Below, piece after piece: positions 33,795 to 64,000 of a stretch of DNA of 64,000 bases; positions within the stretch are counted from its first letter, which is position 1; every line of letters starts with the position of its first letter. The DNA is from Verrucomicrobiia bacterium (GTDB taxonomy: Bacteria > Verrucomicrobiota > Verrucomicrobiia > Limisphaerales > UBA1319), in contig OY760937.1 in the NCBI GenBank assembly GCA_963664225.1, forward strand, positions 5,184,001-5,248,000, in the 5' to 3' direction. The notes under the pieces were generated by a model. The model did no database searches and was not told the origin of the DNA. It was given only the letters and a program-made list of their open reading frames with translations. The position numbers were made by a program, and so were the translations under genes.

Positions 33795-33795
33795 A

Positions 33796-36834: not shown

Positions 36835-36900
36835 CCGAAGAATTTTGTCCTGCACCCAAGGCACAGGCAAGGGCGCTCCTGAGGTTGCGAATATCTTTGA

Positions 36901-37254: not shown

Positions 37255-37272
37255 AGCATTTTGTGCATCTCA

Positions 37273-37599: not shown

Positions 37600-37611
37600 A
37601 CGCGTGATGCT

Positions 37612-37713: not shown

Positions 37714-37964
37714 TGCTGGTCGTAAATCATCTGTGTATCAAGCCAAAGCCCTGCCTTTACTCGCTCGCCACACAGCCCAGGTCAACATAACGAGATACTG
37801 CGCTATCCAGCCGATCAACAAAGCTGGCACCATGCACCTGAACAATGTCTCTATAAAATGCGATTACATTCCCCAAACAAATTGGACAAAGAGCGGCTAT
37901 GGAGTAGGCTGGCTACTGTAGGATATTAGGCAGGTTATATCTGCTGCGCCGACAGGTTCGATTT

Positions 37965-40900
37965 ATGCAAATAAAAGAACAGGGATGTGTCCGGGGCTTT
38001 CCAGTTGCCGCAATCCTCGCATTGGTTCAGATGACTTGCGCATCTGATTTGGCGTCGAATATATCCGGTGCTGAACCGGCCATTGCGAGTGCCGTTCAGG
38101 TCGATCTCTCTCCATCAATGCGGGTCAGCCAATCGCGTGTGTTCGACGTGCCGCTGGTTCCGACCCACCCACCGACGGATGCAGAGAGCCTGGTGCTGAT
38201 TGACTCACTGGAAAAATTCCGGCAGCGAAAGATCCGGGACGATTTTTCCGGGCTCCGGGAGTTTCTGGACAATCATCCAGATTCGGCGTGGTCCCTCGCG
38301 CTGGAGACCCAACTGGGAGGCGAGTATTACCGTGTGGCACGTTATTCCAGGGCGATTCAGGCCTGGCAGCACGCCTGGCAATCGGGAAAAGCCAATTCCG
38401 GGGAGGCCGCGTCATTACTGACCACGCGGGCGGGGAGCGAGCTTGCGATGATGTACGCTTCACTGGGACGCATTCCGGAACTTCGCGCGATCCTGGCAGA
38501 GATCGACAATGGTCCACCTCACGGGTTGATTTCTCGGAGTTTGCGCGGCGCTCGCGACGGGTTGTGGACGATGGAGAATCGTCCGGAGGTGGCCTTCCGC
38601 TGCGGTCCCATGGCCCTTGATCGCATCTGTGCGGCCACGGATCGCTCCAAAGCCGGTAGTCAGTTAATTCAGGATTCGCGGTCCACAACCAGTGGATTTT
38701 CTGCCCGGCAGGTGGCCAGCTTGTCGCACCAATTGGGGATGGACTATCAGGTGGCGTTTCGCAGTCCCGGGGCTGAAATCATTTTGCCCGCGGTCGTCCA
38801 TTGGAAAGTGGGTCATTTCGCGGCACTGACGGCCCGCGATGGGAGTCTGCTTCGTTCCGAGGATCCGACGTTTCCAAACAAAACCTGGTTTTCCAATGAC
38901 GCACTGGACGAGGAAGGGAGTGGTTACTTTTTGGTTCGCCCAGGGCCTTTGCCGTCCGGCTGGCGCGCGGTTCCCGACGCTGAAGCCGATCAAGTCTGGG
39001 GCAAGGGGCCCACCAATCTGAGTTATCGCGATGCCTCGACACAGTGGGATCTCATGGCACATTCGCCTTGCAGGAGCTCCGGAATGGCCACGTGGAACAT
39101 CCACTTGCTGCTTGCGAGCCAGCATGTTGAAGACACGCCCCTGGGCTATGCGCCGCCGCTCGGACCGCCGATTTATTTCACCGTGTCCTACAATTCAGCC
39201 GACGCCCAGGGCCTGGAGGGAGTTACCTATTCCAATATCGCCCCCGACTGGCGCATCAACTGGCTGGAGTATGTGAGCGATGACCCGATGAATCCGGCGG
39301 GCGACGTGCGATTCGCGGCGAATGGCGGGGGAGCGCTTACGTTTACGGACTTCAATTCGACGAACCGGACTTTTCAAAATCTCTTCCGCAACCGGGCCGA
39401 ACTTGTGCGAACTTCGACCAACAGCTACGAGTTGCGATACCCCGACGGTTCGAAAAAAATATTTGACCTGCCCGACGGTTCGGCCGGCACGTTGAGAAGA
39501 ATCTTTATGACGGCCATGGTGGACCCCACGGGAAACGCGGCGACGATACAATTCGAATATCCGGGCAAGATCACGAGCATCACCGACGCCATCGGACAGA
39601 AGACCAGGCTCTACTACGAATTTGGTTTTACCAATTATACCTACATTCCAAACGGAACAACCCTAACAAACGTATCCACCAACACTTACCTTGTCACACG
39701 GGTTGTGGACCCTTTCGGCAGGACCGCGACATTCCAGGCTTTTGCCGGTGGTGCGAACGCCACTTTTGTGCACCTGACCAATATCATTGATGCGATTGGC
39801 CTCAACTCGAGTTTCATCGAGACTGCAAACCAAAATGTCGGGTGGTGGATCAGCGATCTGACCACTCCCTATGGGACGACACGATTTGCAGCCGACTCCT
39901 ACATCCACGGGACCCGGGCCAACTGGATGGAAATAACGAATCCGGACGGGACGAAGGAGCGGGTCGAATTTAACGACGCTGCAGGCAGCGGCGGGGCAAG
40001 CGGGATTCTGACAAGCGATCCACTGGCCGTCGTGCCTAAGGGAGTTCCCGTGCGCAACCTTTTTCTTATGGCGCGCGACAGCTATTACTGGGATCGAAAG
40101 GCCTACGCCGAGAGTTTCAGCCAGAACTATCAGGGCTATACCCACGCCAGGGTTTATCATTTCACCCATGGCTCGGACTATTCCACCGCGTCCCCCATTT
40201 TGGAAAGTTACAAAGCGCCTTTCGAAAACCGCGTTTGGTTCAACTACGACGGACAGTTGAATCCAACCTTCGTCGGCACCTCCGACCAGCCCACGAAAAT
40301 CTCGCGCGTGCTCGACGATGGGACGACGCAGATTTATCAAACTGAATACAACTCCTTGAACAATCCCACCCGGACCATCGATCCGATGGGGCGAACCCTG
40401 AGCTTCCTATACGATTCGAACCAGATTGATTTGAAAGAAGTCCGGCAGACCCGCGCCTCACAAAATGAACTGCTTTTCGCGGCGACCTACAATTCGCAGC
40501 ATCTACCGCTCAGCGCCACCGACGCCGCCCGACAGACGACCGTTTTCACCTATAACTCGCGTGGCCAAATGCTGACCGTGACCAATCCCCGGGGGGAACA
40601 AGATGTCTTAAAGTACGATGCCACGGGCTATCTGATCGCCATCGACGGGCCGCTGCCCGGCACCAACGACACCACGCGGTTCACTTACGACGCAGTTGGG
40701 CGTTTGCAGACTGCGACTGATCTCGACGGTTACACGCTCAGATTCAACTATGACGATCTGGATCGTCTCACGCAGATCACTTATCCCGATGGGACCCATG
40801 AATCAACAGTCTATAAACTTCTCGACCCGGAACTTCTCACTGACCGCGCGGGCAGGGAAACCCGACTGACGTTTGACAGCCTTCGTCAACTGACCGCGGT

Positions 40901-42896
40901 TCAGGATGCGCTGGGCCGTGTGACCCGGTATGAATGGTGCGGGTGCGGCGGCCTGGAATCCATCATCGACGCGATGGGCCACACGACTACCTGGACCCGC
41001 GACATGCAAGGTCGTGTGGTCGCAAAGATTATTCCGGGCGGGTCACAAGTTCTTTATGATTATGAGCCCGGGAGTGGAAACTTGAAGTCGATTCGAGATG
41101 AGCAGGGCCAGATCAAGGTGTTCCGCTATAATATCGACAACACGCTCCGCGAAAAGAGTTATCTCAACGCGGTCATAAAGACCCCAACAGTCAGTTTTAC
41201 ATACGATGCTGATTACCGGCGCGTGCGGAGCATGCAAGATGGAAATGGTCTGACAACCTATGGTTATTATCCGATTACCAGCGCTGCCTCCCTCGGGGCC
41301 GGGCGCCTCGCAACGATTGATGGACCATGGGCCAACGACACGGTCAGCTTTAGTTACGACGAGGTTGGCCGAGTCTCCAACCGCGCAATTAATGGCGTGG
41401 CTGTCCAGCGGGCTTATGATGTGGCCGGCCGGTTGAAGCAAATGACCAACGCACTCGGTGTTTTCACTTTTGCGTGGGAGGGTGGCAGCAAGCGGCTTTC
41501 TTCCGTGCAATATCCGAATGGCCAGCGCACGGATTACGCATTTTATGGAAACGTTCAAGATCAGCTTCTGCAACGCATTACCCATCGACTTGCGAACGAT
41601 GCCATGCTTTCCGAATTCACTTACGCCTATAACACCGTAGGGCAGATCACCAACTGGACCCAGCTCCAGGGAGGCACACTCAAATCTTGGGCGCCCGCCT
41701 ACGATGCGGCGGACCGTTTGCTCGGCGTGGCGGTATCCGAGGGAGGGATACCGGTCCAGTCGTTCGATTACATATACGATGACGCAGATAACCGAACGAG
41801 TGAGCAGACCAATGGATTTCAGCGCCTTTTCTATCACAATGCCCTTAACCAACTCACTGGTATCACCGACAACGCCCTTCCCACGACGACTTACCAATGG
41901 GATGCGGCACATCGCCTCGTGGCGATCAGCAACGGCACACACCGGACTGAACTCAGCTATGACGGATTGGACCGCCGCACCGGCATCGTCGAGAGAGACA
42001 ACGGCGCCGTGGTCAAGGAACGACGCTATCTGTGGGATGGTCTTCAGTTATGCGAGGAACGAGATGCAATTGGCGGTGCCACCCTGACAAGTTATTCCAG
42101 CTTTGGAGTCGCCAGTTCTGCGGGTTCCGACCTGCCGGTTGGTAATTATTGTTTCACGCGCGACCATTTGGCCTCGGTCAGGGAAATGTGTGACCATTCC
42201 GGGAATGTCCGTGCCCAATTTGAATATAGTCCTTACGGCAACCAGCAGAGGTTGGGCGGCGACCTCGAACCAGGGTTTGGCTTCACCGGGCATCCGCTTC
42301 ACGTGCAAAGTTCATTACACCTGGCGCTATTTCGCGCCTATGATGCCAGGCTCGCACGATGGGTCAGCCGGGATCCTGCTGGGGAAGCGCAAGGCCAGAA
42401 TCTTTATGCCTATGTGAGAAATAACCCCATGAACTTCACTGATCCCACCGGGCTTAAAGGAAGAGGATGGACAATAGACCTGCAAAAAGATTTGGTAAAT
42501 TATTTGCAGGCAAATCTTCCCGGAGATACAGACGGGATTCGTCGGCAGCGAACTATACTAAAGGGAATGCAGGAGGACGCCGCGAGAATAGCCTACATGC
42601 GGAGTCATCCCGATCCGAGAGATGGGCAAGCACTGAGGGACCTTATGGCGAGAGATGACACGAAACCGAATCCAGCCATCAATCCCAACGAGCTCGTTTG
42701 TAGAGAAGGTCCTATTCCCAGTGACCTGAGGCGGGCCGTTACACGCACTCAATGGGAACAAGATTGGCACAACATCTATGAAGGACTTCGCCTTTCGTTT
42801 GGAGCTTCTGAAAGGTGGGAAGTTTCTGAAGAATATTTAAGTGCTGACCAGAGGGGCACTGAAGTTTACCGCTATGCTGATGCCTATTGGTACTGA
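37965..42896 (+). CDS. RHS/YD-repeat protein with N-terminal TPR and C39-like peptidase domain and variable C-terminal tip
   Basis: Signal-like N-terminus, RCGPMAL/VGHF/EDP triad, many YD repeats, RHS core FRAYD..LARWVSRDP...NLYAYV.NNPMNFTDPTGL. Confidence 0.9.
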   Translation: MQIKEQGCVRGFPVAAILALVQMTCASDLASNISGAEPAIASAVQVDLSPSMRVSQSRVFDVPLVPTHPPTDAESLVLIDSLEKFRQRKIRDDFSGLREFLDNHPDSAWSLALETQLGGEYYRVARYSRAIQAWQHAWQSGKANSGEAASLLTTRAGSELAMMYASLGRIPELRAILAEIDNGPPHGLISRSLRGARDGLWTMENRPEVAFRCGPMALDRICAATDRSKAGSQLIQDSRSTTSGFSARQVASLSHQLGMDYQVAFRSPGAEIILPAVVHWKVGHFAALTARDGSLLRSEDPTFPNKTWFSNDALDEEGSGYFLVRPGPLPSGWRAVPDAEADQVWGKGPTNLSYRDASTQWDLMAHSPCRSSGMATWNIHLLLASQHVEDTPLGYAPPLGPPIYFTVSYNSADAQGLEGVTYSNIAPDWRINWLEYVSDDPMNPAGDVRFAANGGGALTFTDFNSTNRTFQNLFRNRAELVRTSTNSYELRYPDGSKKIFDLPDGSAGTLRRIFMTAMVDPTGNAATIQFEYPGKITSITDAIGQKTRLYYEFGFTNYTYIPNGTTLTNVSTNTYLVTRVVDPFGRTATFQAFAGGANATFVHLTNIIDAIGLNSSFIETANQNVGWWISDLTTPYGTTRFAADSYIHGTRANWMEITNPDGTKERVEFNDAAGSGGASGILTSDPLAVVPKGVPVRNLFLMARDSYYWDRKAYAESFSQNYQGYTHARVYHFTHGSDYSTASPILESYKAPFENRVWFNYDGQLNPTFVGTSDQPTKISRVLDDGTTQIYQTEYNSLNNPTRTIDPMGRTLSFLYDSNQIDLKEVRQTRASQNELLFAATYNSQHLPLSATDAARQTTVFTYNSRGQMLTVTNPRGEQDVLKYDATGYLIAIDGPLPGTNDTTRFTYDAVGRLQTATDLDGYTLRFNYDDLDRLTQITYPDGTHESTVYKLLDPELLTDRAGRETRLTFDSLRQLTAVQDALGRVTRYEWCGCGGLESIIDAMGHTTTWTRDMQGRVVAKIIPGGSQVLYDYEPGSGNLKSIRDEQGQIKVFRYNIDNTLREKSYLNAVIKTPTVSFTYDADYRRVRSMQDGNGLTTYGYYPITSAASLGAGRLATIDGPWANDTVSFSYDEVGRVSNRAINGVAVQRAYDVAGRLKQMTNALGVFTFAWEGGSKRLSSVQYPNGQRTDYAFYGNVQDQLLQRITHRLANDAMLSEFTYAYNTVGQITNWTQLQGGTLKSWAPAYDAADRLLGVAVSEGGIPVQSFDYIYDDADNRTSEQTNGFQRLFYHNALNQLTGITDNALPTTTYQWDAAHRLVAISNGTHRTELSYDGLDRRTGIVERDNGAVVKERRYLWDGLQLCEERDAIGGATLTSYSSFGVASSAGSDLPVGNYCFTRDHLASVREMCDHSGNVRAQFEYSPYGNQQRLGGDLEPGFGFTGHPLHVQSSLHLALFRAYDARLARWVSRDPAGEAQGQNLYAYVRNNPMNFTDPTGLKGRGWTIDLQKDLVNYLQANLPGDTDGIRRQRTILKGMQEDAARIAYMRSHPDPRDGQALRDLMARDDTKPNPAINPNELVCREGPIPSDLRRAVTRTQWEQDWHNIYEGLRLSFGASERWEVSEEYLSADQRGTEVYRYADAYWY

Positions 42897-42947
42897 GACG
42901 GTTATCCGAACCGCAGTTACGAAGACACTTTCACCGCCAAACCACCC

Positions 42948-45839
42948 GTGAAGCACGTTCCCACGTCATTGCCCGACATTATTTGTCTTTTGCGCTTGAT
43001 GCTTTTGCTTTGCCAATGCGTTGTGCCGTCGAAGGCTCTATGCCAGCTGACGCAGTTGAAGTACGAGCCGTCTGGAAGCCTTGCATCTATCGCACCAACT
43101 GTTGGGACCGGGCCGATAATGATCGGCCAACCGCAATCCGGAGTCGCTGCCATTGGCGATAAGGTCTCCTGGTCCGTTATCAGCACCGGTTCGCTGCCTC
43201 TCTCCTATCAATGGCAGGTAAACAGCAACAACATTCCAGGCGCGACCGCGGATACGCTGTTGATCCTTGCCGTGGCCCCCGCCGATTTCGGAGCCTATCG
43301 TGTCATCGTCAGCAACGCCTTTGGTTCCGTCACCAGCAGCAACGCACTCTTGCAGTTGGATTCTGACGGCGATAGCCTGGCCGATTCATGGGAGATCACC
43401 TATTTCGGCAATATCACAAACTACACCGGCCTCGACGATTATGATCAGGATCACATCTCCAACCTTGCCGAATTCCACGAAGGAACTGCGCCAAAGTCTT
43501 CTAGTTCGGCAAATCCACGACTAACGATCATCAGCGATCGCGGACAGGTCTTTGTCACCCCGAATCTGCCATTCTATACCAATGGCCAAACCGTTACGCT
43601 CCTGGCCTTACCCGACCCAGGACAGGAATTCCTTGGATATCTCGGGGCGGGGATATTCAGTTCCACCTACAATATTAAAACAAATCCCGCTTCGCTGAAA
43701 ATGACCGACAGCCAGACGGTTCGCGTCATATTCGGACTTTCGATCACGAATTCGCTGGATGTCACCAACGGCTGGCGAATCGATCAGGCCGGCTGGTACG
43801 GCCAGACCAATGTCACGCATGACGGTGTGGCCGCCGTCCAGAGCGCCCGAACCTTTTCTTCAAGTGAGCAAGCGGTACTGGAGTTAACCAACGTCATGAG
43901 CGGCGAAGGAACCATCACCTTTTGGTGGAAAGTAGATGGCACACCAAGAGATAGTCTGTTCTTCTGGCTCAACAACTCCTTGCGATCCGGCCAGATCAGC
44001 TCCAACACGGACTGGCAACTGGCGACCTATTACCTCCCCGCCGGCACAAACAGGATTCGCTGGATATACGCCAAGGGAGGCAACGAAGTCTCGGAATATA
44101 ATGGCCTTCTCTATGCGCCAGTCGATGCCGGATGGGTGGATGAGGTAAAGTTTCAAGTATGGAGCAATCCTTTGCTGGATACCGACCGGGATGGCCTGCC
44201 GGATCTTTGGGAGTTAAAGTACTTTGACAGTCTTGCCGCCAGGCCCGGCGACGATCCCGACGGCGACGGCATTTCCAACCTTGATGAGTATATCGATCAT
44301 ACCGATCCCACGATCAACAGCTCATCGCTGCCCCGCCTGACTGTTACCGCAAGCGGAGGCGCCATCGTGCGCAACCCCGATTTGGCGAAGTATCCTTACA
44401 ATCAGAAAGTCGGTCTAGTTGCCGTACCGGATCCTGACAATTATTTCGTCATATGGGGTGGGGCCGTCACCGGGACGAATATCACAAATAGTTTGAACAT
44501 GTCCCGGAATCAGTCTGTCACGGCAGTCTTTGGCTCGCTACTAGCCGCTGCGCTGGAAACGCCATCGCTGGCCTGGGTGCGCGGAGGAATAATCGGCTGG
44601 TATGGTCAAACGAACGTCACGCACGACAGGGTGGATGCCGCCCAGAGCGGACCGGTCGGTTCCCAGCAGGAAAGCTCGATGCAAACAACGGTCGATGGCC
44701 CGGGAGCACTGACTTTCTGGTGGAAGGTTTCCTCCAGAACAAACTCCGACCTGGCCAGATTCCTGGTCGATGGTGTGGAGCAGCCTGAAAAGATATCCGG
44801 CGAGTTGGATTGGAATCCGCAGGTTTATTATCTCGCGCCCGGAAACCACACGCTGCGCTGGTCGTTCACAAACTCTACCGGAGTCTTCACGTTGACGAAT
44901 GGATGCGCGTGGGTGGATGAGGTTAAATTCACCACCGGGTCGTTCGCGCCGGAGATACTGCAGCAGCCCGGGGATTTGTCCGTGCTTCAAGGCGCCAGCA
45001 TCACGCTCAAAACGGTTGCGGCTGGAAGCCCCGCGCCAACTTATCAATGGTATTTGAACGGGATCAGTCTGGGCGACGCCGGCACTAATGCCACCCTCTC
45101 GCTTGGTAACGCCATCCCTGCACAGTCCGGCATCTACTACGCAGAAGTCCGCAATGCCATCCAAACGAACGCTTCGACGGCCTTCACTTTGACGGTTCTT
45201 CCGGTGCCGCCGGCCAACGACAATTATGAGGATCGAAGCGTTCTCTCCGGTACCACCGAATCGAGTGGCTACGATTTTGGAGCGACCATGGAACCGAATG
45301 AACCCAATCACAACAATCAATACCCCCGCTCCTCGGTATGGTGGAAATGGATGTCCCCGGCAACCGTCCAGTATCGGCTTGTCGCCCGAAGCAGAGGAAT
45401 CATCTCCACGCTTGTCGCCGGTGTTTACACAGGAACCGCCGTTGACAATCTAACGTCGATCGCGAGCTCTTCCCAAAATGCCTCAACGACCAACGGCGAG
45501 TCACTTGCGACGGTCCAACTTCCATTTTCCGCCATCGCCGGAACTGAGTATGCCATCGCACTGGGCCACACTTTTGGGCCTGCGGGTTATTTAAACCTCC
45601 AAATGGAAATCGCATTCCAAGGGCCTTTGCTGGGCAATCCTGGATTTAACTCCAGCGGACAGTTCGCTTTCTCATTTATCGTATCGCCAGACGCCAGCTA
45701 CGCAATCGATACGTCCACGAACTTGATCAACTGGTCCCTTGTCGCCACTGGCACTTCGACTGTGGATGGAACAGTCAACTACGTAGAACCTCCAGTTCAA
45801 CGCGGGACATTGAGAATTTATCGCGTGCGATTGCCGTAA
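42948..45839 (+). CDS. secreted multi-domain Ig / TSP3-like / InlB-B-repeat-like protein
   Basis: Signal peptide, two Ig domains (PLSYQW...GAYRVIVSN), DxDGDxLxDxWE Ca-binding repeats, duplicated WYGQTNVTHD...FWWKV...WVDEVKF domain, TSTNLINW...IYRV tail. Confidence 0.85.
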   Translation: MKHVPTSLPDIICLLRLMLLLCQCVVPSKALCQLTQLKYEPSGSLASIAPTVGTGPIMIGQPQSGVAAIGDKVSWSVISTGSLPLSYQWQVNSNNIPGATADTLLILAVAPADFGAYRVIVSNAFGSVTSSNALLQLDSDGDSLADSWEITYFGNITNYTGLDDYDQDHISNLAEFHEGTAPKSSSSANPRLTIISDRGQVFVTPNLPFYTNGQTVTLLALPDPGQEFLGYLGAGIFSSTYNIKTNPASLKMTDSQTVRVIFGLSITNSLDVTNGWRIDQAGWYGQTNVTHDGVAAVQSARTFSSSEQAVLELTNVMSGEGTITFWWKVDGTPRDSLFFWLNNSLRSGQISSNTDWQLATYYLPAGTNRIRWIYAKGGNEVSEYNGLLYAPVDAGWVDEVKFQVWSNPLLDTDRDGLPDLWELKYFDSLAARPGDDPDGDGISNLDEYIDHTDPTINSSSLPRLTVTASGGAIVRNPDLAKYPYNQKVGLVAVPDPDNYFVIWGGAVTGTNITNSLNMSRNQSVTAVFGSLLAAALETPSLAWVRGGIIGWYGQTNVTHDRVDAAQSGPVGSQQESSMQTTVDGPGALTFWWKVSSRTNSDLARFLVDGVEQPEKISGELDWNPQVYYLAPGNHTLRWSFTNSTGVFTLTNGCAWVDEVKFTTGSFAPEILQQPGDLSVLQGASITLKTVAAGSPAPTYQWYLNGISLGDAGTNATLSLGNAIPAQSGIYYAEVRNAIQTNASTAFTLTVLPVPPANDNYEDRSVLSGTTESSGYDFGATMEPNEPNHNNQYPRSSVWWKWMSPATVQYRLVARSRGIISTLVAGVYTGTAVDNLTSIASSSQNASTTNGESLATVQLPFSAIAGTEYAIALGHTFGPAGYLNLQMEIAFQGPLLGNPGFNSSGQFAFSFIVSPDASYAIDTSTNLINWSLVATGTSTVDGTVNYVEPPVQRGTLRIYRVRLP

Positions 45840-46282
45840 AGATCTGGCACACCAGCAATGTCATGCGCGTTCACCATGTTATCCCATTTCGCAGGAAATC
45901 AAATCCAATGTAACGACCTCAACCCAAACTCCAAGTGAAGACATTTGGTGACACAGACCGGAGAATATTGGCTGCCTTAGTTACTTCAGTAAACTTGAAA
46001 CGCTATGCTGTCAGCTCAAATCGGGCAATACACTTATCGGGTATGTGAACACGGCCTGGTCAATGAATGCTTGCAGCGGTGGTGCACCATTAATTTGTTC
46101 GAATATATACTAACATAGTATTATTTGCATTATTCAGCGGTTGTGCAATTGTTGCTGCGTGAGAGGGTGCTAAATAGCGGACGGAGCCCGTTATGGCTGA
46201 TACACACAAAGACTGGACAAGCGTGCAAGAGTTGCCGGTCATCAAGTGCATGGTGCCCTGCGATTGTGGTCAATGGGGTGTC

Positions 46283-46933
46283 ATGGTTAAGCGAATGCAA
46301 TGTGTGACGCCCATAAGTGCCTGGGTAACGACGCGGTTTGTCATTCCCCTTTATTTAATCGTTGGTCTGAGTCTGGCCACGGCCCAGGGCACGGTGACGG
46401 TGCTCAACACTGGCAAAGGCCAACCCCTTGCTACGCAGGTTCGAACGGTTACGATTGACGCGTTCCAGGTCCAGCCCGAAGTGCGATTCAACTTCGGTTT
46501 TGGCACGGACGAAACCGTCACGCCCGGTACCTTCCTGGATTCCTTCACTGTCACGATCCAGGACGCCAGTCAAGTCTTCACCGCCGTTTATCTGACCGCT
46601 GACGCCAGTGGCACGGTTCTCGCGCCACCGACGCCGGGGACGCTTCCCATCGATTCCGCAACGATCGAATCTCACGCCATCGTGTATTCGAGCCTTGATC
46701 CCGTTTTTGAGTTTGAGAATGCCTTTCAGGTCGTCGCGGCGATCCCGCAGCAATTCGTCGGCGGTCAGATTAACGTTTATTTTGATCTTTTCGATAACCT
46801 CGACTCGAAGGCGTCACAAGCATGGTTCAGTGACCCCGAGGTAATGAGCGTTCCCGAGCCGCAGATATGGACGCTGCTGCTGCTGGGGCTGTGTTTGGGA
46901 TCATTCCGATTCACACATGACATCGCCTCATGA
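46283..46933 (+). CDS. PEP-CTERM-like surface protein
   Basis: Signal peptide, beta-rich domain, SVPEPQIWTLLLLGLCLG; basic tail weak; start uncertain; overlaps the next start codon. Confidence 0.7.
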   Translation: MVKRMQCVTPISAWVTTRFVIPLYLIVGLSLATAQGTVTVLNTGKGQPLATQVRTVTIDAFQVQPEVRFNFGFGTDETVTPGTFLDSFTVTIQDASQVFTAVYLTADASGTVLAPPTPGTLPIDSATIESHAIVYSSLDPVFEFENAFQVVAAIPQQFVGGQINVYFDLFDNLDSKASQAWFSDPEVMSVPEPQIWTLLLLGLCLGSFRFTHDIAS

Positions 46934-55900: not shown

Positions 55901-57623
55901 CAAATCAAGCCAGACGAACTTCACTCCCGCGGAGATCATTGCCAATGGTTTGAATACGCTGGCGAGGCAACGAAATGACGCGCTGCCTGAGGTCTCCTTC
56001 TTCCCGGTACGTTACGAGTATTTCACCAATGCCGTCCTTGATTTGGAGGCCAATACGGCCTATCTCGGCGGCAGCGACCCGATCGGCGATGCGGGGTTGG
56101 GTCGGCAGCTTCTGCTCCTGAAATGGCTCCTGGAAGGCGAGTATCTGCGAGTCAATCACCCGCCAATCAATCTCGCAGGCGAGGACCTTGACACTGTTTG
56201 GCAACGTCTCACCAATCACGGCATCCCGCGCCTTGAGGGATTCGAATGGGCGGAGTTGCAGCAATTCAACGATTTTTCGAGCGGTTTCATGCTGCGCACT
56301 TTTGACCCCATTCGTGTCCGAGGTGCCAATCCGGCCGCCATGAACTTCCTGCGTGACCGCACCATCAAGCAAGTAAAGACGCTCGGCAAGGCTGCGTTGC
56401 GCGGCGCGGCGGCGTTGCTCGCCGGCGCGGACCAGGGTGACGAATTGTTTCGCCTGAGTCGCAGTGCTTATCGTCAGATGGGGTATCGTTCATTCGAGGA
56501 ATATGTTCGCGACGTGGCGGCCGGCCAGTTCGTATTACTCGGGACATTTGCCAATAATTTGAATACCTGGCTGGAGGCCAAGGAGGGAAGCACTCCATTT
56601 ATCGACAACCTGTTGCAAGATGATTGTGCCGTAAATTCCTACCTCCAACAGTCCATCCAGTTTCTGTTCTTTGTCCGCAGCCAGGTCTTTGTGAATCACG
56701 AAATCGACATCGGAATTCTGCAGATCGGCAACCAATCCGAGCTCTTCTTCCGCACCAATAATCTCCAGCGGCTCCGGGACGGCTTCCCTGCAGTGGGCCG
56801 AAGCGGCTTGGCACAAGTCTCTCAGGAAAGCGTGATCAATCTGGAGTTACTTCTGCGCAATGACGGGCCAAGCCTAATCAACAATGCGGAAATCCGAATG
56901 AAGATTACGGGTCGTTCGGATGTGACCCTGACGACCAACCTGTTGCCCGCCAGCGTAATGATCCTTCGCGGCAACCGGGATAGCGGCGCACCATTCTTCC
57001 TCGTCACTCCGCATACGGACACGGTATTCCGCGAGGTCAGCCTGGAGTTGCCCACACCCGGATCCATCCACGAACTCACCTCTGCCAACAATGTGATCGA
57101 GTTTGCCACCTTTGTCCTCAGCCTGACCGACCCGTGTGATCACGCGGCAGGTTACACGCCACATCCCGACCACACGCTGTTCAAGGATGATCAACTCAGC
57201 TCGCCATATCGGACGCCGCCGGGATTTGATCCGGGCTTCCAGCCGGGTATCTCCGGTCAGTTCCTGGCACTGAAGTTCAAGGATCACTTTGGCAAGCTGC
57301 CGGAAGGCATTTTCATCGTGGGGAGCCGCACCAAGGGTGAGAACACGGGTGATATCGACACGGTGTTTATAACTGATCTTATCATCGACCGCGACGTCAC
57401 CGACCGTCTCGCTGCTTGGACGTTCTTCCGATCGGTCAATCCGCATCTCGTCCCGTTCCTGGATGCCAACGGAATCACGGGTATCGGGCTGGCGACACCC
57501 GACAATCCGAATCCACGCGGTCTCGGCTACGATCCCGACGACATTCCGAAGAAAGGTACCGTAGATACAATGTTCTCAACCTACTGGCAGATGTACCGGC
57601 CCGGTGTTCGTATTTACCCATGA
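46917..57623 (+). CDS. giant secreted protein (3568 aa): Ig-like/carboxypeptidase-regulatory-like domains, LVIVD-like propeller, alpha/beta-hydrolase, C-terminal nucleotidyltransferase-like tip
   Basis: Signal peptide, Big_5-like PQVSSINPTNGA..FSKPVNP, LVLVDISDP repeats, FIPGMAGS/YDWRR/AHSNGG/GDGTVP/EH, VGSRTKGENTGDID. Confidence 0.85.
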   Translation: MTSPHETRWRLRRYVPLLALVGISAVADSAVADVRTFSLGEATLSLEDVTPEVGVVFTSLRFNRALNIWNVEVSLTNRSPRTFQGPLVLLVENFSGTSGALQPDGVDEVAKAFYDFSGTIQDGVLSPGEQSLNRTLSLGFTSGAPKLTPRVFVKSPAAPVALGLTRTLNDAGQPLPDVQVVETGPLGVVTNRSDPGFGVVTLGQAIGRHIWQFSAPGYLPVWRQQTLATNEVTVIPDPRLTRSGSNAFVLTPISGGQISNAIGTIQIIYPPGTVTQNTTAVLTSLTSQTLPGFLPIGWSPLQAFWLEFAGEPTSAGTATLTLWGPVGNGETAALARWNPVNLSWDVLQVLAGNGSTALTTSVPGSGSYSLVVPDAAPFAPPTPQLGQPLVAAKASLPDLSALKASGVVEPNSSPASRVPELVTGTATVVITNSSGPLPSGLLLRGEIQEEYRLRESRAGIPPAALGTTRHPPQYENFMVGYQRPGDGNDSTLHATFPLRPLLLFGAEELDQATVTVDVLTPTPFAGSVLDTNGGLITSEGIRVLGGVGDLNGNQAAQLRRLDATNFTDFSTNGISITAAFELAIGGVASGRHLVAQCDDLPTNGVFVLARVLYDQGLYGLRPVERLRSDSKGRLVGAEPVVGERLGGLVSAGQYLLLRLNAPQGLVTGIAHNSNGQPTAGLPVQITGQPWLAFSEANGAFRLLAPTGAVQVAVTDLASGDSGAAQITVSSPQAVTTANPGTASISPQVSSINPTNGAAGIARVTSIIVNFSKPVNPATLQGGGIQLLSTNGVAVIASLTLNLKNTMATLLPSEQLAPSTLHTLLLSTNITDLTGLKLAGPTSFTFTTESDQLNRVSAQFIIYEPTNGFAPVFGTPGAADPESPVILINETSGETATILSRVDGSFTNIIAADVEDFISATIVNRNGTRTTMPAVRQVFRDGSVGLFNGGGVIAVDGDQGPIELRVEPGSIATRTVLRMASVPLATVKRVLTDPPGGGVKVLGGVTLSEAGDPLTVGADISFPIDPAMLDLPPGTRPEDATFALAIPREQEDGTTVYQIIERMDYDHGKLVTRSPPFLGIVLKKLFGQLSSTKKLKLSNQILNALGLPSLQQTIVHELLLPLMLAQGTSTTVHGHVRAAEFDDQGNPKPGTENVVPGALVVIDKGTASPGIPGRLKPGDTFVTADEKGLYASIFPINLVDGPEDFLVTATHPAFFGQRAAGGQVIQNMAERLRNAIINLKLGVEVELYFNKVNAQIEVGDDVTPPTIVFTQTPRDPPPGTGLEDGVTVTVSARDDRSIDSVQIQIVNYQSLVVTTNPPAPSPTLLTETNLSAALREVSFRLNSLVRAIATVRATATDLSGNFRSADYPVVFAGDRVYPAPTGGKGPRVITSWPTDGSLGVRPGMPFLLDFSVPLTNTAGATAAQWLQVTGGDLTDAELSPDGKVVTVHFNATPGSAVTFVVQSTLLGANNRSFDQDPATSGDQSYTLTLTLAPSQEEALTGLTFGGGAVVKGRYVLALDRAQNAGAVVVYDLASGQPVKVASAPLAGPARDLALIPNWTFAMKDGGVSQTRDLLAVVGGSISAEGFQILRVFDVTDPPNISRVAGSSIALGAVAVTKLRWAAPYLAFLESGADVTSVGFINLQSYIIGMNATPDEIAAFPQEGRPGTDANNDGDFGDIGDVLPLPQRNPISFFGKEFALTTETVQRILDFDIDNGTGLVGLTLAAGFKRGSNGLADPNLPLTGAYRTAIDPSGPLDPHKATLPMLAGERPKRVALFPQVALQRTNGTITVLDLALVSVNDEGGATNQLVLVDISDPLGPRRVGTADVSIFGVPQTINRRADGLLALATTQDVLLLDPARLLLPVTPSGLPAALVGTLSGLGGGMNSFDAPDSGVNVVNAGGNSKVIRTSPSLRILTFPGDTPQPASFIAGLPIDAKKALLSRGVEQSLLIKSRLLTQPTNSSTPDLTLPDPNQHYYVRVDALAMTNTLDLAIEVLNGSGYPLEEHGGNQPPVKMASPLTMTGLGVTNGSLFPRRLVAQRMAAEPGNLLYNVFLAGPFVLSAGPIPTNFAQKVVDQVPRVVLRPGRALWVGIDPTSTAGLSPGSAATVAGHRLLPGASTYARIEHSQPPIIFIPGMAGSHLENADAFLADANPLPFGLTERWPGYVSALQKQLSLDPSDTQPAIVPSDAIRKIPEAFTLEAIMGNNFAANAAGAAASALTAIYEPLLKHLVEVGGYVEYDYTHRDGKLVKPHNMPPLRDPATFDGTQLAQHPNLFVYPYDWRRDNGIASTNLERYLELVRLFNPEEDQVDLVAHSNGGLVARRFIIDHPGVVRRCVTLGTPFLGAPKAVASMETGDFDSAVLNFIMEKPLMRKLAEYFGGTQQLLPQLAFFTLGGRPLVEAGWDLNENGNAFETYDYDHYKLVMDQVFHSRTNVFPVATNELFHSYSVGPNQQGDWRNDTTGVEYFHIFGVQAAPNTITQVRATRRLRELGTNFTDLSLTLYSPDETVFGRELRTTPTNTLSQRRFVVENHLEYVRGEGDGTVPVLSAARTNSVDNFNAPGAHLIRAASPSPDKDGDYEHNSMLGNPDVLKAVTDALAGLEPSIPPPTPVAATPLGQAGIRAAAPLGSDPGYRIELINAAPGTAVIHDSVNPNDTTEGAVEEFFGISNKRVTWLLGVGQDSEGLNAVNFHIPDGLPGGPFVVEFTAGELPVVLIVSRIVAGQVERRVIYGGRLFGDGDAVKVTIDSNTGDATFNPGGGILEPTRVLVGAEARDETAPATQLKPVNGNVTIAEVTATDAVSSTNGLTYYVAPDDWNDGEITTEVFQQLDQPQVDMTLLNYNQGWVVSSDAAGNISPPRLLSINTPAPDCTLFVQRRLVLSDVVVKGLEAAFASGWLLNLTNAKALEQGSGACLWRQDDQGNDISCQQCAGVYDPNRSDHDIELFLPCFISGAPPNLTAVAHDALTLAGDWYFRRPDDAGQNWSYTKPPAFGGGAVLIAKSSQTNFTPAEIIANGLNTLARQRNDALPEVSFFPVRYEYFTNAVLDLEANTAYLGGSDPIGDAGLGRQLLLLKWLLEGEYLRVNHPPINLAGEDLDTVWQRLTNHGIPRLEGFEWAELQQFNDFSSGFMLRTFDPIRVRGANPAAMNFLRDRTIKQVKTLGKAALRGAAALLAGADQGDELFRLSRSAYRQMGYRSFEEYVRDVAAGQFVLLGTFANNLNTWLEAKEGSTPFIDNLLQDDCAVNSYLQQSIQFLFFVRSQVFVNHEIDIGILQIGNQSELFFRTNNLQRLRDGFPAVGRSGLAQVSQESVINLELLLRNDGPSLINNAEIRMKITGRSDVTLTTNLLPASVMILRGNRDSGAPFFLVTPHTDTVFREVSLELPTPGSIHELTSANNVIEFATFVLSLTDPCDHAAGYTPHPDHTLFKDDQLSSPYRTPPGFDPGFQPGISGQFLALKFKDHFGKLPEGIFIVGSRTKGENTGDIDTVFITDLIIDRDVTDRLAAWTFFRSVNPHLVPFLDANGITGIGLATPDNPNPRGLGYDPDDIPKKGTVDTMFSTYWQMYRPGVRIYP

Positions 57624-63600: not shown

Positions 63601-64000
63601 CGCGGATTCTCGCCGGGTCGGCGCCACCCACAGCGCGGTGAGGACGAACATCACCCTCAGTATTATCGGCGACGCGCCGCCAGTCTCCATGAAGCTGCTG
63701 GGGGTCGGGTCGGTTGCCGGGACCGTGTTATTGAGCGATGGCGTGACTCCCGCCACTGGGGCCGAAGTAACCCTCAAGACTCAGTCTCCGCTTTTCAATG
63801 GCGATGAGGAAACTCAATTTGCAGGTAGTTCCGGACAATTCAGTTTCAGCAACGTGGCGGTTGGTCCCTATACTCTCAGTGTAAAATCCGTCGCGCTGGG
63901 TACCTCGGTTGGCGGCAGCATCACCGCTGATGGTGAAAACGACAACCTAAGCCTGGTCCTGAGCGGCAGTGGCGCGGTCGTTGGTCGATTGGTAAGAGTC
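57620..64000 (+). CDS. giant secreted protein with carboxypeptidase-regulatory-like (Cna-B-type) repeats, >2127 aa, truncated by window end
   Basis: ATG 57620 overlaps the upstream TGA. The start (signal peptide, TLEYKISG...VSRVTSRPLTLQEI) and end (...GTVLLSDGVTPATGAEV...GSGAVVGRLVRV) translate in the same frame, and the track lists no ORF in this frame, consistent with no stop; repeated G.V.G.V..DG.TP...F.F..VP.G units. Confidence 0.88.
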   Translation, partial: MNINAPTHVIGGLTRTSSTAGRLVRSSFAIPSLAAALGWILGCGFVFVASIALAAGPLTTLEYKISGIELQITPTAISVPKGIAGSVLATFTGPTNSFDGAFIEGTLRGPAFPARRIVGQVNQPLLLPAIPLVGDYQLDNIRLVDGATGLTKMEASPSSVPVHVFDDVLVSRVTSRPLTLQEIQDRGIIIDDANFRAVEFEVGFVLDGKTIPVRFPVVAPTFTQSTEIIPAAELEKKLAEAAILNQQIAGAVELPPELEQSKLNIQIQGINFQPVEVGSADLQLNIPPIPALMIIPGNIGFLNQFFSVQIFTENGAPAGSGLSVNNVQATLTLPSGPDHIASTNYSQPGDDPLRFARLGPDKIVQPTQTITRPGPDGKLGTPDDILRLQPGESGTAEFLVEGLQEGLQLMDLNLVADLEGLAAGIVKVKGKAAGSVLVRNPKFSIAFTHPRTVRTGEPYEASVTILNTSISPANLVRVSLPSTALSGGVLESAETVELGTILPGQSATASFRIRSQRSGSVSFSNLTTSDESTQGQFRLSMGIDERGVVLSPDTLAMPDFVNALPTNLVAAANRVLGQALSVATAGQLPPGVLNVTKSVITKRVLELAEAGQRLRYGDALNRVLADLLFDWQGGRDFNSGFDQIMRVTDAGREFREALIAEMEKADTLDGSARLAESAADLTGRGESWILAAVNIPDIELSLADGTNAVLLDHSDMVRALGYRGGRGHWLGAGSTVTNGVFRWTLTNSVPAADFVVLIINTNGKARQLRWTIANPPAGSCYSFAIPDATGQLAVDANCDGTPETFLPATILTVNERAPEIVSVRQDLSVLAGRPALPCSTVPYDPRNYGTVLAVLFSKPMTQNGVNLPSAYQLENGNHANSVQIQPGARVALLNMAQPVGALRPRTLTVSEVSDPRGNPLLGNARLVESSLAAGTAIRGRVVRADGSFAAAVPVTLTYYDLDGSGFDCVSFIVRASQVFTDNNGLFNFDFVIAGIPYSVSATDTAGLPPEAVQVILESATGDAFAREKLLALLNARQNQDTLLNAFATVSLPQAIAKAEGLDRALLRDLVPLGSAREGTESVVALRFRGRGTVAGQVLSTDGVTPADGVAVNLFPDPDSRELGRGLFADSSGRFAFFGVPLGLFTVQATAPGGQLRTVAGVLDQVGQTANLTIVLSSNTAPLATLRGLVFEPDTITPHGGARVFVGRFNDEGKFVDVVAATSANSDGFWVATNFPAGNYDVAAVSFDGQRKGDRRRIQATLAVDTEVSITLNGRTTVSGRVEFFNGVPAANALVAGGDTIVRTDARGLFTLSGVPTGQRAISAGLERNPAAGIDFPRLGSAQINVVGGVDNFVVVRLRPAGRITGRVLDALGAPVPNARVVIPQDSGFLYVDADAQGSYLFENLNLGDYTLSAPGPAVAKTDTSGLVDRIRSAENEDEVMAAIGEAFRIFAGATDPFLTGEPFNPVTWGFTRTQLTFDGQTVAADIGLLRPGTVSGIVLNGQGVPIGAKVRLTGIGPLANGAPSFIIRGELNSDPSLGTFTFPNGILVGPFGLQAASPFFPVVVSAIGQTTSTEPNSTNNLLQFPATREINGRLTGTVFNPDGSPTGSNVTVKISFGTDYSIKTDTNGFFDTQIGLPAIDANGSPGLGYSVEADDPLTGLRGMANAIVLPGITNVCNVQLIGKGALDILVRQASGTPAINALVEIRQGSFPNENSTGTTDTNGNVSFQNLFAGPYAVRAAWISGPTTIFGRGGVWVTAGQTSAITVALGPTATIRGTFVQRDLVTPIAFAQVSVGDLGFATTDEAGHFEVAGIPLGTYRLVSQEPVSGRGALLSVNLTFDGEIRDVLLIERAQGEIKGGVLDGYGTSFVPGANVTLIELDGLTPPRTVSTGPDGQFSFPGTPAGGFTLKAEDPVNHFQGIASDNLTETTPVLTFNIQLERLARLVAQVFEPGGRVPATNATVQLLGEKVSLTTDTDSTGRVAFLNLPLGSYRLRADSRRVGATHSAVRTNITLSIIGDAPPVSMKLLGVGSVAGTVLLSDGVTPATGAEVTLKTQSPLFNGDEETQFAGSSGQFSFSNVAVGPYTLSVKSVALGTSVGGSITADGENDNLSLVLSGSGAVVGRLVRV

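Follow-up and report, generated by a model that had tools for sequence, protein, structure and literature searches.

A conserved three-gene set for giant, Sec-signal-bearing surface proteins in Verrucomicrobiota, a candidate toxin-display module

The last part of a 64,000-nt stretch of DNA from a Verrucomicrobiia bacterium, called the window throughout, is occupied by five consecutive + strand open reading frames, here named A to E, which begin at 37965 and include several giant genes. In a preliminary description of this DNA they had been taken for the subunits of a single Sec-exported, surface-anchored machine. The question is which of the five genes belong together, and what the resulting set of proteins might do. 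The features discussed are reported in Table 1.

Table 1. Genes and selected features of the locus, in window numbering.
Feature	Position	Strand	Size or residues	Description
Gene A	37965..42896	+	1643 aa	RHS polymorphic toxin, Sec-type; neighbour outside the module
Gene B	42948..45839	+	963 aa	Ig-repeat surface protein, C-terminal 'FYRV' domain; neighbour outside the module
B-C spacer	45840..46192	+	353 nt	AT-rich
Gene C	46193..46933	+	246 aa (216 aa from Met31, likely start 46283)	Small secreted beta-sandwich, PEP-CTERM-like tail
Gene D	46917..57623	+	3568 aa	Signal-peptide-like N-terminus, beta-sandwich stalk, variable payload
D domain 1	47007..47381	+	aa 31-155	Predicted C-binding face
D payload, part 1	53604..54716	+	aa ~2230-2600	Predicted LCAT/PGAP1-type alpha/beta-hydrolase
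D payload, part 2	54717..57620	+	aa ~2601-3568	Without recognisable family
Gene E	57620..70291 (window ends at 64000)	+	4223 aa from ATG at 57620	

The number and common orientation of the genes were confirmed from the list of open reading frames. Gene E runs past the end of the window and was completed from the downstream contig sequence, where it ends 6.3 kb further on; its ATG start agrees with the public gene call P0001. Direct reading of the sequence also bore out the overlaps described at the last two junctions, which measure 17 nt between C and D (46917-46933) and consist of an ATGA between D and E (57620-57623). A and B are 51 nt apart, and the B-C spacer, the sole long gap in the run, is probably the start of a C-D-E transcription unit; no sigma-70-type site was found on its + strand by a consensus scan. 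The signal-peptide-like N-termini, earlier attributed to all five proteins, are readings by eye and by a count of hydrophobic windows.

Related loci, 31 in all, were gathered with a D profile. In 26 of them D is preceded by a homologue of C, and two of the other five have a non-homologous small PEP-CTERM ORF in its place; C was also found upstream of D in all 10 further loci reached through E. E follows D at 13 of the 31 loci, and in 15 of the other 18 the available DNA stops within D. In a sample of 251 genomes of the host order, E is present in 30 and D in 34, with D found in 29 of the 30 E-carrying genomes; where both occur on the same contig, D lies immediately upstream of E on the same strand (22 of 22). 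Five D-positive genomes gave no E match: the D match is weak in two, and the other three genomes are 62-89% complete. The D/E junction was compared in nine copies (the window and eight relatives), with an ATGA in four, a one-base TAGTG overlap in one and a gap no longer than 22 nt in three. Translational coupling, proposed earlier for the overlapping genes, is supported for D and E by these junctions. Gene order, strand and junctions are kept across families and two classes of the phylum. The exceptions are a locus with no E match in the 4.7 kb past D (L029), one without C (L030) and two broken by frameshifts (L034, L047). Of the 7-10 flanks compared on each side, no more than two have any other gene family in common. 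Judged from these comparisons, C, D and E belong together as a conserved module of three genes in Verrucomicrobiota, extending from 46193 to 70291, and their homologues do not occur singly without synteny.

D is single-copy in the genome, and neither D nor E has a PDB sequence match. The stalk of D (~aa 1-2100) is 45% identical to relatives over aa 1-1064, and about 29-33% identical from there to ~aa 2100-2195. Predicted folds cover the first ~1050 residues of D and of E. The AF2 model of D aa 31-1080 is all-beta (pLDDT 88, pTM 0.71), and Foldseek matched it to generic multi-Ig proteins with a TM of at most 0.13 (0.06-0.13 across D and E); such matches indicate shape, not function. Beyond the stalk, a match to Pfam LCAT at aa 2271-2385 (37.7 bits, cut-off 21), together with PGAP1 at 24.3 bits, agrees with the lipase fold noticed earlier. 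The motifs AHSNG (Ser2311), GDGTV (Asp2538) and EHNSM (His2578) were located by eye, and the Ser-Asp-His triad is apparently intact; the first part of the payload is accordingly classed as a predicted lipase, phospholipase or acyltransferase of LCAT/PGAP1 type. The second part gave nothing by Pfam at E <=1, no usable protein-atlas match and no PDB sequence match, and is 27% identical over 783 aa to a relative with a lipase-type payload (L039). An NTase-like tip, also reported earlier, was not recovered, since Pfam at E <=1 revealed no such domain anywhere.

The payload beyond ~aa 2100 was compared in 14 relatives of D. It consists of DUF6531 and RHS in 11 of them, of LCAT and PKD, as in the window, in two (L038, L039), and of DUF6531 only in L029; at three loci D is reduced to a core of 2119-2182 aa without payload. 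All eight RHS-type payloads scanned contain Rhs_assc_core. Pairwise alignments of RHS payloads mostly end within ~50 residues of a PxxxRDPxG motif, with unrelated tails beyond; that of L022 with L036 extends ~150-190 aa past the motif. The last 250-330 aa of RHS-type D relatives vary between loci, and variable C-terminal tips on RHS cages are a hallmark of polymorphic toxins. No RHS repeats were detected by Pfam in the D of the window; that it is a toxin is therefore argued from the lipase and by analogy with its relatives.

E has a signal-peptide-like N-terminus and a conserved N-terminal module of 1100 aa, followed by transthyretin-like repeats (aa ~1090-2100), three Big_5 domains, TSP3, three identical 226-aa repeats and a C-terminal 'FYRV' domain. 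Its Pfam domains include CarboxypepD_reg, SdrD_B and SpaA, so that the Ig/Cna-B-type repeats of the preliminary description are found in E as well as in B (Ig_3, I-set). Between families of the order, identity in the N-terminal module is 51-77%. The module matched 740 clusters at 50% identity (E <=1e-30), and at least 252 clusters at 90% identity; among the best 150 of the 740, it is N-terminal except in fragments, and the family names are all generic among the best 120 listed. The AF2 model of aa 49-1100 (pLDDT 75.8) shows beta-sandwiches and helical segments.

The tail of C consists of VPEP followed by a hydrophobic helix, with one Arg only. It scores 19.9 bits for PEP-CTERM, slightly below the Pfam cut-off of 20.7, and C weakly matches the FxDxF PEP-CTERM family NF038126; of the anchor claimed earlier, the tail-like sequence stands and the score falls short. 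The ends of 24 C homologues were assigned to canonical PEP-CTERM (15), an RFYRL-type domain (7) or read-through into D (2). We propose that C is an anchor or adaptor for D. The C-D complex, modelled from custom alignments and so outside the calibration of the tool, gave an ipSAE of 0.87 (three runs). Among solved complexes, 116 of 157 attain this mark, as do 2 of 215 mismatched pairs. The best of three controls, the one that kept C and replaced D, reached 0.51, which shows C to be 'sticky' in the model. At least 98% of the contacts are common to the runs, with a partner pLDDT of at least 87. The predicted interface comprises, in D numbering, aa 54-66, 68, 70-72, 76, 78, 96, 135, 137, 142-147 and 149. 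The first domain of D carries the motif FTSLRFNRALNIWN, and the modelled interface overlaps the invariant run F57-V73 of D (alignment A1). It also takes in 9 of the 15 invariant or near-invariant columns of C, together with the most conserved motif of D. D domain 1 and C diverge jointly in the Puniceicoccaceae loci. According to the model, C would bind the first domain of D.

Taken together, these results make C, D and E a conserved and undescribed surface/toxin set of several subunits that bear Sec signals. The reading that we favour, and hold to be slightly more probable than all others combined, is a module of new architecture, anchored at the surface, that combines polymorphic toxin and adhesin and displays swappable toxic payloads; its function, the route of a 400-kDa protein across the outer membrane and immunity are what we infer. 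The three proteins would cross the inner membrane by Sec, as their N-termini, read by eye, suggest. C would be fixed to the envelope by its C-terminal sorting tail, PEP-CTERM in the window and the 'RFYRL' domain in some relatives, and would hold D through the modelled contact. D would then be a beta-sandwich stalk of ~2100 aa with the payload at its far end, an RHS cage in most relatives, and in the window an LCAT-type lipase with ~970 aa of unrecognised fold. E, whose translation is probably tied to that of D by the ATGA overlap, may form a second giant fibre, in which a highly conserved base carries a long transthyretin-like stalk and lectin or adhesion domains that vary across the family, and could supply target binding, a second anchor or both. 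The purpose would be contact-dependent attack on neighbouring cells or prey. No immunity gene was seen at these loci, where D overlaps or abuts E, nothing is conserved past E and the next gene is convergent in several cases; a missing immunity gene is unusual for antibacterial RHS toxins.

The RHS shell and the C39-like protease of the preliminary description are both located in gene A. Its RHS repeats (1.9e-47) and Rhs_assc_core (1421-1497) confirm the shell, and the protein is composed of a TPR-like repeat, a C39-like peptidase, the YD shell and a 146-aa tip past the motif PMNFTDPTG at residue 1488. The C39-like region scores weakly (18.8 bits, Pfam cut-off 22), and is retained as a candidate for the invariance of Cys213 and His284 in 6 of 6 homologues. 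Gene B, which also contains Flg_new_2 by Pfam, has many partial paralogues in the genome.

Four other explanations were weighed. That A to E form one surface-anchored multi-subunit machine, as first described, would fit their adjacency, common orientation and the short A-B gap, as well as the fusion of RHS to D in most relatives, the RHS gene of the window lying 4 kb upstream. None of the 31 D loci, however, has a relative of A or B; A-type genes were found in 71 of the 251 genomes of the order, and in the 18 that hold both, they are always on contigs other than those of D and E. A also shows only weak similarity to the RHS part fused to D in G029 (21-26% identity, E 3e-8 to 2e-6), and the long AT-rich gap separates B from C. 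The higher GC content attributed to the whole locus holds for D (0.591) and E (0.610), not for A, B and C (0.549-0.556), which are at the genome average (0.560, sd 0.022 per 10 kb). The five genes as a conserved unit are refuted by the absence of A and B from the D loci, and we consider the five-gene machine very improbable; the conserved surface/toxin set survives as C, D and E. The RHS shell and C39 protease therefore lie outside this copy of the complex, and A and B are, on their distribution, independent neighbours of the module. A chance grouping of giant genes unrelated to each other, in a genome where such genes abound (50 ORFs of 1500 aa or more), remains the true description for A and B. 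For C, D and E the synteny counts refute it, order, strand and junctions being kept across families and two classes, and as an account of the locus it is hardly credible.

A more serious alternative, to which we give a distinctly smaller though appreciable likelihood, is that C-D-E are adhesion or nutrient-capture fibres, which bind particles or glycans and show hydrolases, such as the lipase of the window, for feeding, with RHS cages as a secondary feature. Precomputed Pfam lists of E relatives contain LamG, PA14, cadherin-like, F5/8-C, pentaxin and C-lectin domains, the D of the window has a lipase but lacks RHS, immunity genes were not seen, and fold matches include S-layer and adhesin domains. 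The 50 very long ORFs, together with the 'FYRV' C-terminal domain of E and B in 136 proteins of the genome, further indicate that giant surface proteins are a general habit of the organism. Against it stand the full RHS module in 11 of 14 relatives, with tips non-homologous past the autoproteolysis motif, which is a polymorphic-toxin signature, and the three loci where D has no payload. A Tc/ABC-toxin-like injector, in which E, as the 'A' component, would bind a eukaryotic or prey membrane and translocate the cargo of an RHS cocoon in D, is improbable. It would explain a cocoon with a giant partner and no immunity gene, as in eukaryote-targeting Tc toxins, and the two helical segments among the beta-sandwiches of E; sequence matches to TcdB2-TccC3 and YenC2 (E 1.8e-7 to 5.7e-4) were obtained with the Rhs core of relatives, but over only the ~60 aa common to all RHS proteins. 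Neither D nor E has a TcA or TcB family by Pfam or a match among PDB sequences, the folded part of E is mostly Ig-like, and the D of the window has no cocoon. In D relatives, moreover, unlike Tc toxins (TcA with TcB-TcC), cocoon and long Ig stalk form a single protein and a PEP-CTERM partner is present.

Among known systems, the outline of RHS-type D relatives is shared with bacterial teneurin-like proteins (TLPs). These are giant, Sec-signal-bearing and surface-exposed, with an N-terminal Ig and transthyretin-like adhesion region followed by a YD/RHS shell enclosing a polymorphic C-terminal toxin, and their delivery machinery is stated as not known (Raoelijaona et al., Nat Commun 2026, PMC13018210). 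In the portions of that paper available to us, they are reported from six phyla, the word Verrucomicrobiota being absent. As defined there, TLPs have FN-plug or NHL domains, neither detected by Pfam in D relatives, and their loci encode immunity proteins, none of which was seen at C-D-E loci; obligate partners such as C and E are no part of TLP loci in the same portions. TLPs have a YD shell, whereas the D of the window has none; teneurins are among its fold matches (prob 0.82-0.96, TM 0.05-0.09).

WapA is an example of a Sec-dependent RHS polymorphic toxin. Toxins of this 'T2SS-type' have a signal peptide, YD repeats, a PxxxxDPxGL motif and a variable toxin tip, and, in the available part of the survey, are encoded by a single gene followed by an immunity gene; the same part does not mention 'PEP-CTERM' (Zhang et al. 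2012, PMC3482391). This plan is exactly that of gene A and of the payload of most D relatives, although D-type RHS, where it occurs, is set on a conserved 2100-aa stalk, with two conserved partner genes and no immunity slot seen. PEP-CTERM/exosortase sorting, reportedly described by Haft and colleagues in 2006, would suit C: VPEP, a hydrophobic helix and basic residues make up the C-terminus of this protein and of the majority of its homologues, and three exosortase genes and 15 PEP-CTERM matches above cut-off were counted in the genome. To our knowledge, no PEP-CTERM protein serves as adaptor of a giant toxin, and a literature search found none. The grappling-hook protein GhpA of Aureispira (PDB 9flp, 9fly), a giant multi-Ig surface fibre of a cell-attacking bacterium, is among the Foldseek matches of D (E 4.1e-9) and of E; with a TM of 0.08-0.13 and an rmsd of 79-111 A, the resemblance is no closer than between any two long chains of Ig domains, and a PDB sequence search showed no similarity to either protein. 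The three-gene set is unstudied in Verrucomicrobiota, and would be a toxin-display module of new architecture if the favoured reading is true.

As remarked earlier, no T6SS, CDI or T1SS genes lie nearby: Pfam gave no secretion-system family, either in the next 27 kb or in the window ORFs scanned, which were those of 150 aa or more with a single representative of each overlapping set. The insertion sequence noted beside the locus is real, with 34-nt inverted repeats at 35090 and 36870 flanking a UPF0236 ORF. The attC cassettes described next to the locus correspond to 97-nt repeats at 37161 and 37620; these have 20 genomic copies, 16 of them in four clusters, and an attC-like identity is plausible.

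The five plus-strand ORFs listed in the table, here called A to E, are present as the preliminary description had them, and the whole window is contained in a single 5.78-Mb contig. The end of C and the start of D overlap by 17 nt, while the stop of D and the start of E share the tetranucleotide ATGA; the public gene call picks the identical ATG, at 57620, for E. In all five N-termini, inspected by eye, a basic stretch is followed by a hydrophobic run. In the DNA past the window end, the genes that come next after the E stop lie on the opposite strand. To the eye, the preliminary description had found the locus GC-richer than the housekeeping part: this holds for D (0.591) and E (0.610), compared with 0.560 for the genome, but not for A, B and C, whose values are not raised. 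Rfam produced no matches within the window, and a promoter/terminator scan of 37000-47500 was uninformative, since promoter-like sites were rarer there than in shuffled sequence.

Coding regions of the locus, in window numbering
Gene	Position	Strand	Feature
A	37965-42896	+	ORF, 1643 aa
B	42948-45839	+	ORF, 963 aa
C	46193-46933	+	ORF, 246 aa
D	46917-57623	+	ORF, 3568 aa
E	57620-70291	+	ORF, 4223 aa, stop beyond window

A profile built from the first 1064 aa of D was used to scan one genome per species, and 31 loci were obtained, 30 of which are labelled as Verrucomicrobiota, as a group within it, or by a generic label. A homologue of C is found upstream of D in 26 loci, and E is found downstream in 13; for 15 of the 18 loci without a downstream E, the fetched sequence ends within D. 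Among single loci, L029 continues for 4.7 kb past D with no E match, L030 is devoid of C, frameshifts interrupt L034 and L047, and L026 features a 561-aa ORF between D and E. In L026 / G029:C12 (12126-24827), C and D share one stop-free frame, the PEP-CTERM tail of C leading into the signal peptide of D; a genuine fusion, the loss of a stop or a fault in the assembly could explain it.

In another sample, made up of 251 genomes from the same order, the N-terminus of E was found in 30 genomes (51-77% identity) and that of D in 34, D being present in 29 of the 30 E-bearing genomes. The two genes share a contig in 22 cases, and in every one of these D immediately precedes E on the same strand. Further flanks, fetched from this sample, feature C upstream of D in 10 out of 10 cases, and no other gene family is common to more than two of them on either side. 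Neither D nor E occurs in the sampled genomes of the window's own family (0 of 9 in one sample, 0 of 5 in the other). A-type genes are far commoner, being present in 71 of the 251 genomes, and in the 18 genomes carrying both A-type and D/E genes, the former are always located on other contigs. C, D and E are each single-copy in this genome.

From these synteny and co-occurrence counts, the conserved unit is C-D-E, and A and B are mere neighbours; we are nearly certain that the three-gene module is real and conserved. It is widespread yet patchy, occurring in about 12-14% of the sampled genomes of the order. The preliminary description had proposed one surface or toxin machine made of all five genes: C, D and E are indeed kept together across relatives, whereas A and B are absent from all 31 D loci. 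Its observation was largely right and its interpretation right in spirit, with the unit wrong, three genes rather than five.

Just upstream of C, five to six related loci (e.g. L018, 4984-9178, and L023, 4466-8981) carry two genes, one of them ECF-sigma-like (about 260 aa), the other coding for a Ser/Thr-kinase-WD40 protein (about 1100-1240 aa). A weak Sigma70_ECF match was found in one of two ECF-sigma-like genes scanned. Together, the ECF-sigma-like and kinase genes might regulate the module; in this genome they do not adjoin it.

Relatives of D are alike over roughly the first 2100 residues, signal peptide included, after which the similarity breaks. Past this point, 11 of 14 relatives carry DUF6531 and RHS, two carry LCAT and PKD, as the window's D does, and L029 carries DUF6531 only. 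Rhs_assc_core was found in all of the eight RHS-type payloads scanned. Alignments between pairs of these payloads mostly stop no more than some 50 residues from the PxxxRDPxG motif, the last 250-330 aa being unrelated; that of L022 with L036 extends about 150-190 aa further. Judged from the alignments, such divergence of the tails is polymorphic-toxin behaviour. In three loci (L041, L045 and L046) D consists of the core only (2119-2182 aa). Between D and E, these loci contain a gene for a conserved signal-bearing protein of about 320 aa (L041, 8117-9085; L045, 8839-9810; L046, 16361-17326), which may be a payload or adaptor with a gene of its own.

The window's D shows no RHS match, either whole or in 400-aa tiles, and no PxxxxDPxG motif. 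It contains one Big_5 domain and an LCAT/PGAP1-type lipase, the remainder being without family match. The lipase scores 37.7 bits with PF02450 (cut-off 21) and 24.3 bits with PF07819 (cut-off 24.3), and includes the motifs AHSNG (Ser2311), GDGTV (Asp2538) and EHNSM (His2578). Residues 2230-2600 form an alpha/beta-hydrolase of this type with an apparently intact Ser-Asp-His triad, assigned by eye. For residues 2601-3568 the protein atlas gave no usable match, and phmmer against PDB only matches with E of 0.6 or higher; neither whole D nor whole E matched any PDB sequence. An NTase-like tip, claimed by the preliminary description, was found neither in Pfam searches of tiles of D, E and A (E <= 0.01) nor at the ends of D and A (E <= 1).

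The first ~1050 residues of D and of E were modelled by AF2. For D (aa 31-1080) the model is confident and all beta-sandwich, with a pLDDT of 88 and a pTM of 0.71. Its top fold matches are alpha-2-macroglobulins, teneurins, S-layer proteins and the GhpA grappling hook, and reveal only a long Ig-like chain, since TM is at most 0.13 throughout. The best single-domain match of the AF2 models is the S-layer protein SbsC (Z 14.3, rmsd 1.6 A over 95 residues, model residues 767-883). Identity of D or E as alpha-2-macroglobulin/thioester proteins was rejected: no CxEQ thioester motif is present in either, and the alpha-2-macroglobulin matches have a TM of only 0.06-0.13.

Protein C ends with the tail VPEPQIWTLLLLGLCLGSFRF, which contains one Arg only, and scores 19.9 bits with the PEP-CTERM family PF07589, compared with a cut-off of 20.7. 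The genome encodes three PF09721 exosortase matches above cut-off (148.8-167.7 bits). Among 24 ends of C homologues in the fetched DNA, 15 are canonical PEP-CTERM tails, seven are RFYRL-type domains and two read through into D. The alternation of PEP-CTERM and RFYRL-type ends suggests that both would serve one purpose, envelope sorting. In two Puniceicoccaceae loci, the position of C is taken by a non-homologous small PEP-CTERM protein, and the first domain of D has diverged as well.

Binding of C to the first domain of D was modelled by a controlled complex prediction, in which C aa 63-225 was combined with D aa 31-405 in three runs and three controls. All three runs reached an ipSAE of 0.87, a mark attained by 116 of 157 solved complexes versus 2 of 215 mismatched pairs, although the prediction was run with custom-made alignments, which lie outside the calibration of the tool. 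The best control, which retained C and swapped D, reached 0.51, so C is somewhat "sticky" in the model. At least 98% of the contacts are common to the runs, and the pLDDT of the partner is at least 87. On the D side, the predicted interface (aa 54-78) corresponds to the invariant FTS.RFNRALN.WNVEV motif, and the predicted C-binding domain (aa 31-155) carries the motif FTSLRFNRALNIWN. On the C side, the interface takes in 9 of the 15 columns that are invariant or nearly so, the DLFDN motif included.

Gene E encodes many transthyretin-like (CarboxypepD_reg) domains, three Big_5 domains, TSP3 repeats and three identical 226-aa repeats. No part of the module is better conserved than the first 1100 aa of E. 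Among 1.84 billion representatives, a profile of the N-terminus matched 740 clusters (50% identity) at E <= 1e-30; in the best 150 matches listed, the region is N-terminal in the protein, unless the latter is a fragment, and full-length proteins measure about 2100-6700 aa. A word-based search found at least 252 clusters at 90% identity, and the names of the best 120 are all generic. According to precomputed lists, the further domains of E relatives vary, and include LamG, PA14, cadherin-like, F5/8-C, pentaxin and C-lectin domains. The AF2 model of the E N-terminus (pLDDT 75.8) consists of beta-sandwiches and two helical segments; its fold matches are single Ig-like or transthyretin-like domains, and one helical segment (model residues 511-634) had no match in the fold-search lists.

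BLAST located the repeats of E at about 9693-12056 of L002, DNA beyond the window end, as three full and two partial units of 678 nt (226 aa) with 99.9-100% DNA identity. They were missed by Tandem Repeats Finder because their period exceeds its 500-nt limit. The public call of the E protein is 3946 aa long and identical over 3930 aa, so the number of repeats differs between assemblies.

E closes with a domain of about 80 aa ending in ...RLFYRV. An HMM was trained on 106 ORFs of this genome that end in this way, and it matched 136 ORFs, a count that is partly circular since the seeds were picked by motif; in 124 of them the domain lies within 15 aa of the stop, and most of the ORFs are large. 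B and E match the HMM, and A, C and D do not. The domain, which ends in ...[FY]YR[VL] and is located at about 45640-45836 in B and at about 13040-13288 of L002 in E, has no name in Pfam or NCBIfam, and may be an unnamed sorting signal of Verrucomicrobiota. Among C homologues it alternates with PEP-CTERM, being the ending of seven against 15 with PEP-CTERM.

Gene A contains RHS repeats (PF05593, 1.9e-47; TIGR01643, 2.1e-30) and matches solved Rhs proteins, such as 7q97 (3.5e-40). Rhs_assc_core TIGR03696 is complete at aa 1421-1497 (profile positions 1-76 of 76), and PMNFTDPTG, at residue 1488, is followed by a 146-aa tip with no family match at E <= 0.01. A therefore has the features of RHS/YD polymorphic toxins, namely YD/RHS shell repeats and a core with the PxxxxDPxGL cleavage motif and a short variable tip. 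No immunity gene is found directly 3' of it; B, a signal-bearing Ig-repeat protein, starts 51 nt on. The N-terminus of A contains a TPR-like repeat and a C39-like region, aa 213-324, scoring 18.8-21.2 bits with PF03412, below the cut-off of 22. Cys213 (FRCGP) and His284 (VGHFAAL) are invariant in six of six homologues, and a PDB profile search of the region matched TPR proteins and no C39 entry. The N-terminal 700 aa of A (37965-40064) represent a widespread Sec-type RHS family, found in 71 of the 251 genomes of the order and often multicopy.

Where the carrier is a T6SS, a Tc complex or a Gram-positive wall, polymorphic RHS toxins have been investigated in depth. Verrucomicrobiota, plentiful in soil and water, have received little study. 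How diderms without such carriers present RHS toxins is put as an open question in the available part of a 2026 paper (PMC13018210). The teneurin-like proteins (TLPs) treated there are the closest described counterpart to C-D-E; in that part they are reported from six phyla, Verrucomicrobiota not among them, and their delivery apparatus is given as not known. Unlike TLPs, the window's D is without a YD shell, and so without the superfold of FN-plug, NHL propeller and YD shell; in the RHS-type relatives of D, Pfam detected DUF6531 and RHS, and neither NHL nor teneurin families at E <= 1e-3. Having no YD repeats, the window's D falls outside both the RHS proteins and the TLPs outright. Next closest, from what is accessible of Zhang et al. 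(PMC3482391), are the Sec-type RHS toxins, to which gene A belongs. Tc toxins are similar in combining a cocoon with a giant partner, but no TcA/TcB Pfam family or PDB sequence match was found in D or E, the models covering the first ~1050 residues of each. In a term search of the literature, main texts only, neither the C-D-E module nor a PEP-CTERM toxin adaptor was found described. The available part of a giant-gene preprint (10.1101/2023.11.21.568195) presents Verrucomicrobiota only as a phylum rich in genes of at least 10,000 aa and as a source of comparison genomes.

Gene order is fixed and the junctions are tight, payloads are swapped on a conserved stalk, the RHS tips of relatives are polymorphic, the window's D has a lipase profile with an apparently intact triad, and C and E bear sorting-type tails. 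All this was observed; C-D-E would be a polymorphic-toxin system on a new conserved scaffold. C, D and E would be exported via Sec; C would be anchored in an exosortase-dependent manner and hold D at the cell surface, and E, produced alongside, would be a fibre that binds the target or adds a second anchor. The targets would be neighbouring cells. We lean slightly towards this anchored-toxin mechanism. The main rival explanation is a non-toxic fibre for adhesion or enzyme display, which would account for the lectin-type domains of E and agrees with the lack of visible immunity genes: when ORFs downstream of E were clustered in seven relatives and listed, none was conserved or consistently placed. 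The RHS cages of D relatives argue against such a fibre.

Cargo of a T6SS, of a CDI/two-partner system or of a T1SS was rejected on the ORFs scanned: Pfam detected no PAAR/VgrG, TpsB-type transporter or ABC-MFP-TolC genes in 37 flanking ORFs (window and the second 20 kb beyond, L003; E <= 1e-6) or in 12 nearer ORFs (1e-3). The preliminary description had likewise noted no such genes in the window. A fuller version of the anchored-toxin mechanism is proposed tentatively, and is rather unlikely to hold in every part: a previously undescribed polymorphic-toxin delivery route, particular to Verrucomicrobiota and using no numbered secretion system, in which an exosortase-sorted PEP-CTERM adaptor would dock a 2100-aa stalk, the warheads would be interchangeable (RHS cage, lipase, or none with a separate small gene), and a translationally coupled, lectin-tipped E fibre would select the target.

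As an answer to how diderms without such carriers present RHS toxins, the locus is a concrete candidate that can be put to the test: it combines an invariable scaffold of three genes, a modelled contact between anchor and stalk and natural payload swaps. If the fuller version is true, PEP-CTERM proteins and the 136-member "FYRV" domain, i.e. the C-terminal domain of B and E, would gain a concrete function in envelope anchoring. The locus would also provide the first specific role for a PEP-CTERM protein, and it points to a C-terminal domain that is very common in Verrucomicrobiota surface proteins as a second sorting signal. The module family is large, as judged from the clusters matched by the E profile, with generic names in those listed.

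Upstream of A, an insertion sequence at 35090-36870 has 34-nt inverted ends (82% complementary) and carries a DUF6788 ORF and a UPF0236-family ORF. Two copies of a 97-nt repeat (37161-37257 and 37620-37716), 86% alike and 459 nt apart, enclose a minus-strand ORF of 108 aa. BLAST found 20 copies of this repeat in the genome, 16 of them in four clusters with spacings of about 300-1600 nt, a pattern that fits attC-like cassette arrays. At 32955-34554, two small plus-strand genes encode a 279-aa Big_9/cadherin-like protein and a 252-aa protein with a P-domain match and a PEP-CTERM tail (20.8 bits, barely above cut-off), a small PEP-CTERM pair near the locus.
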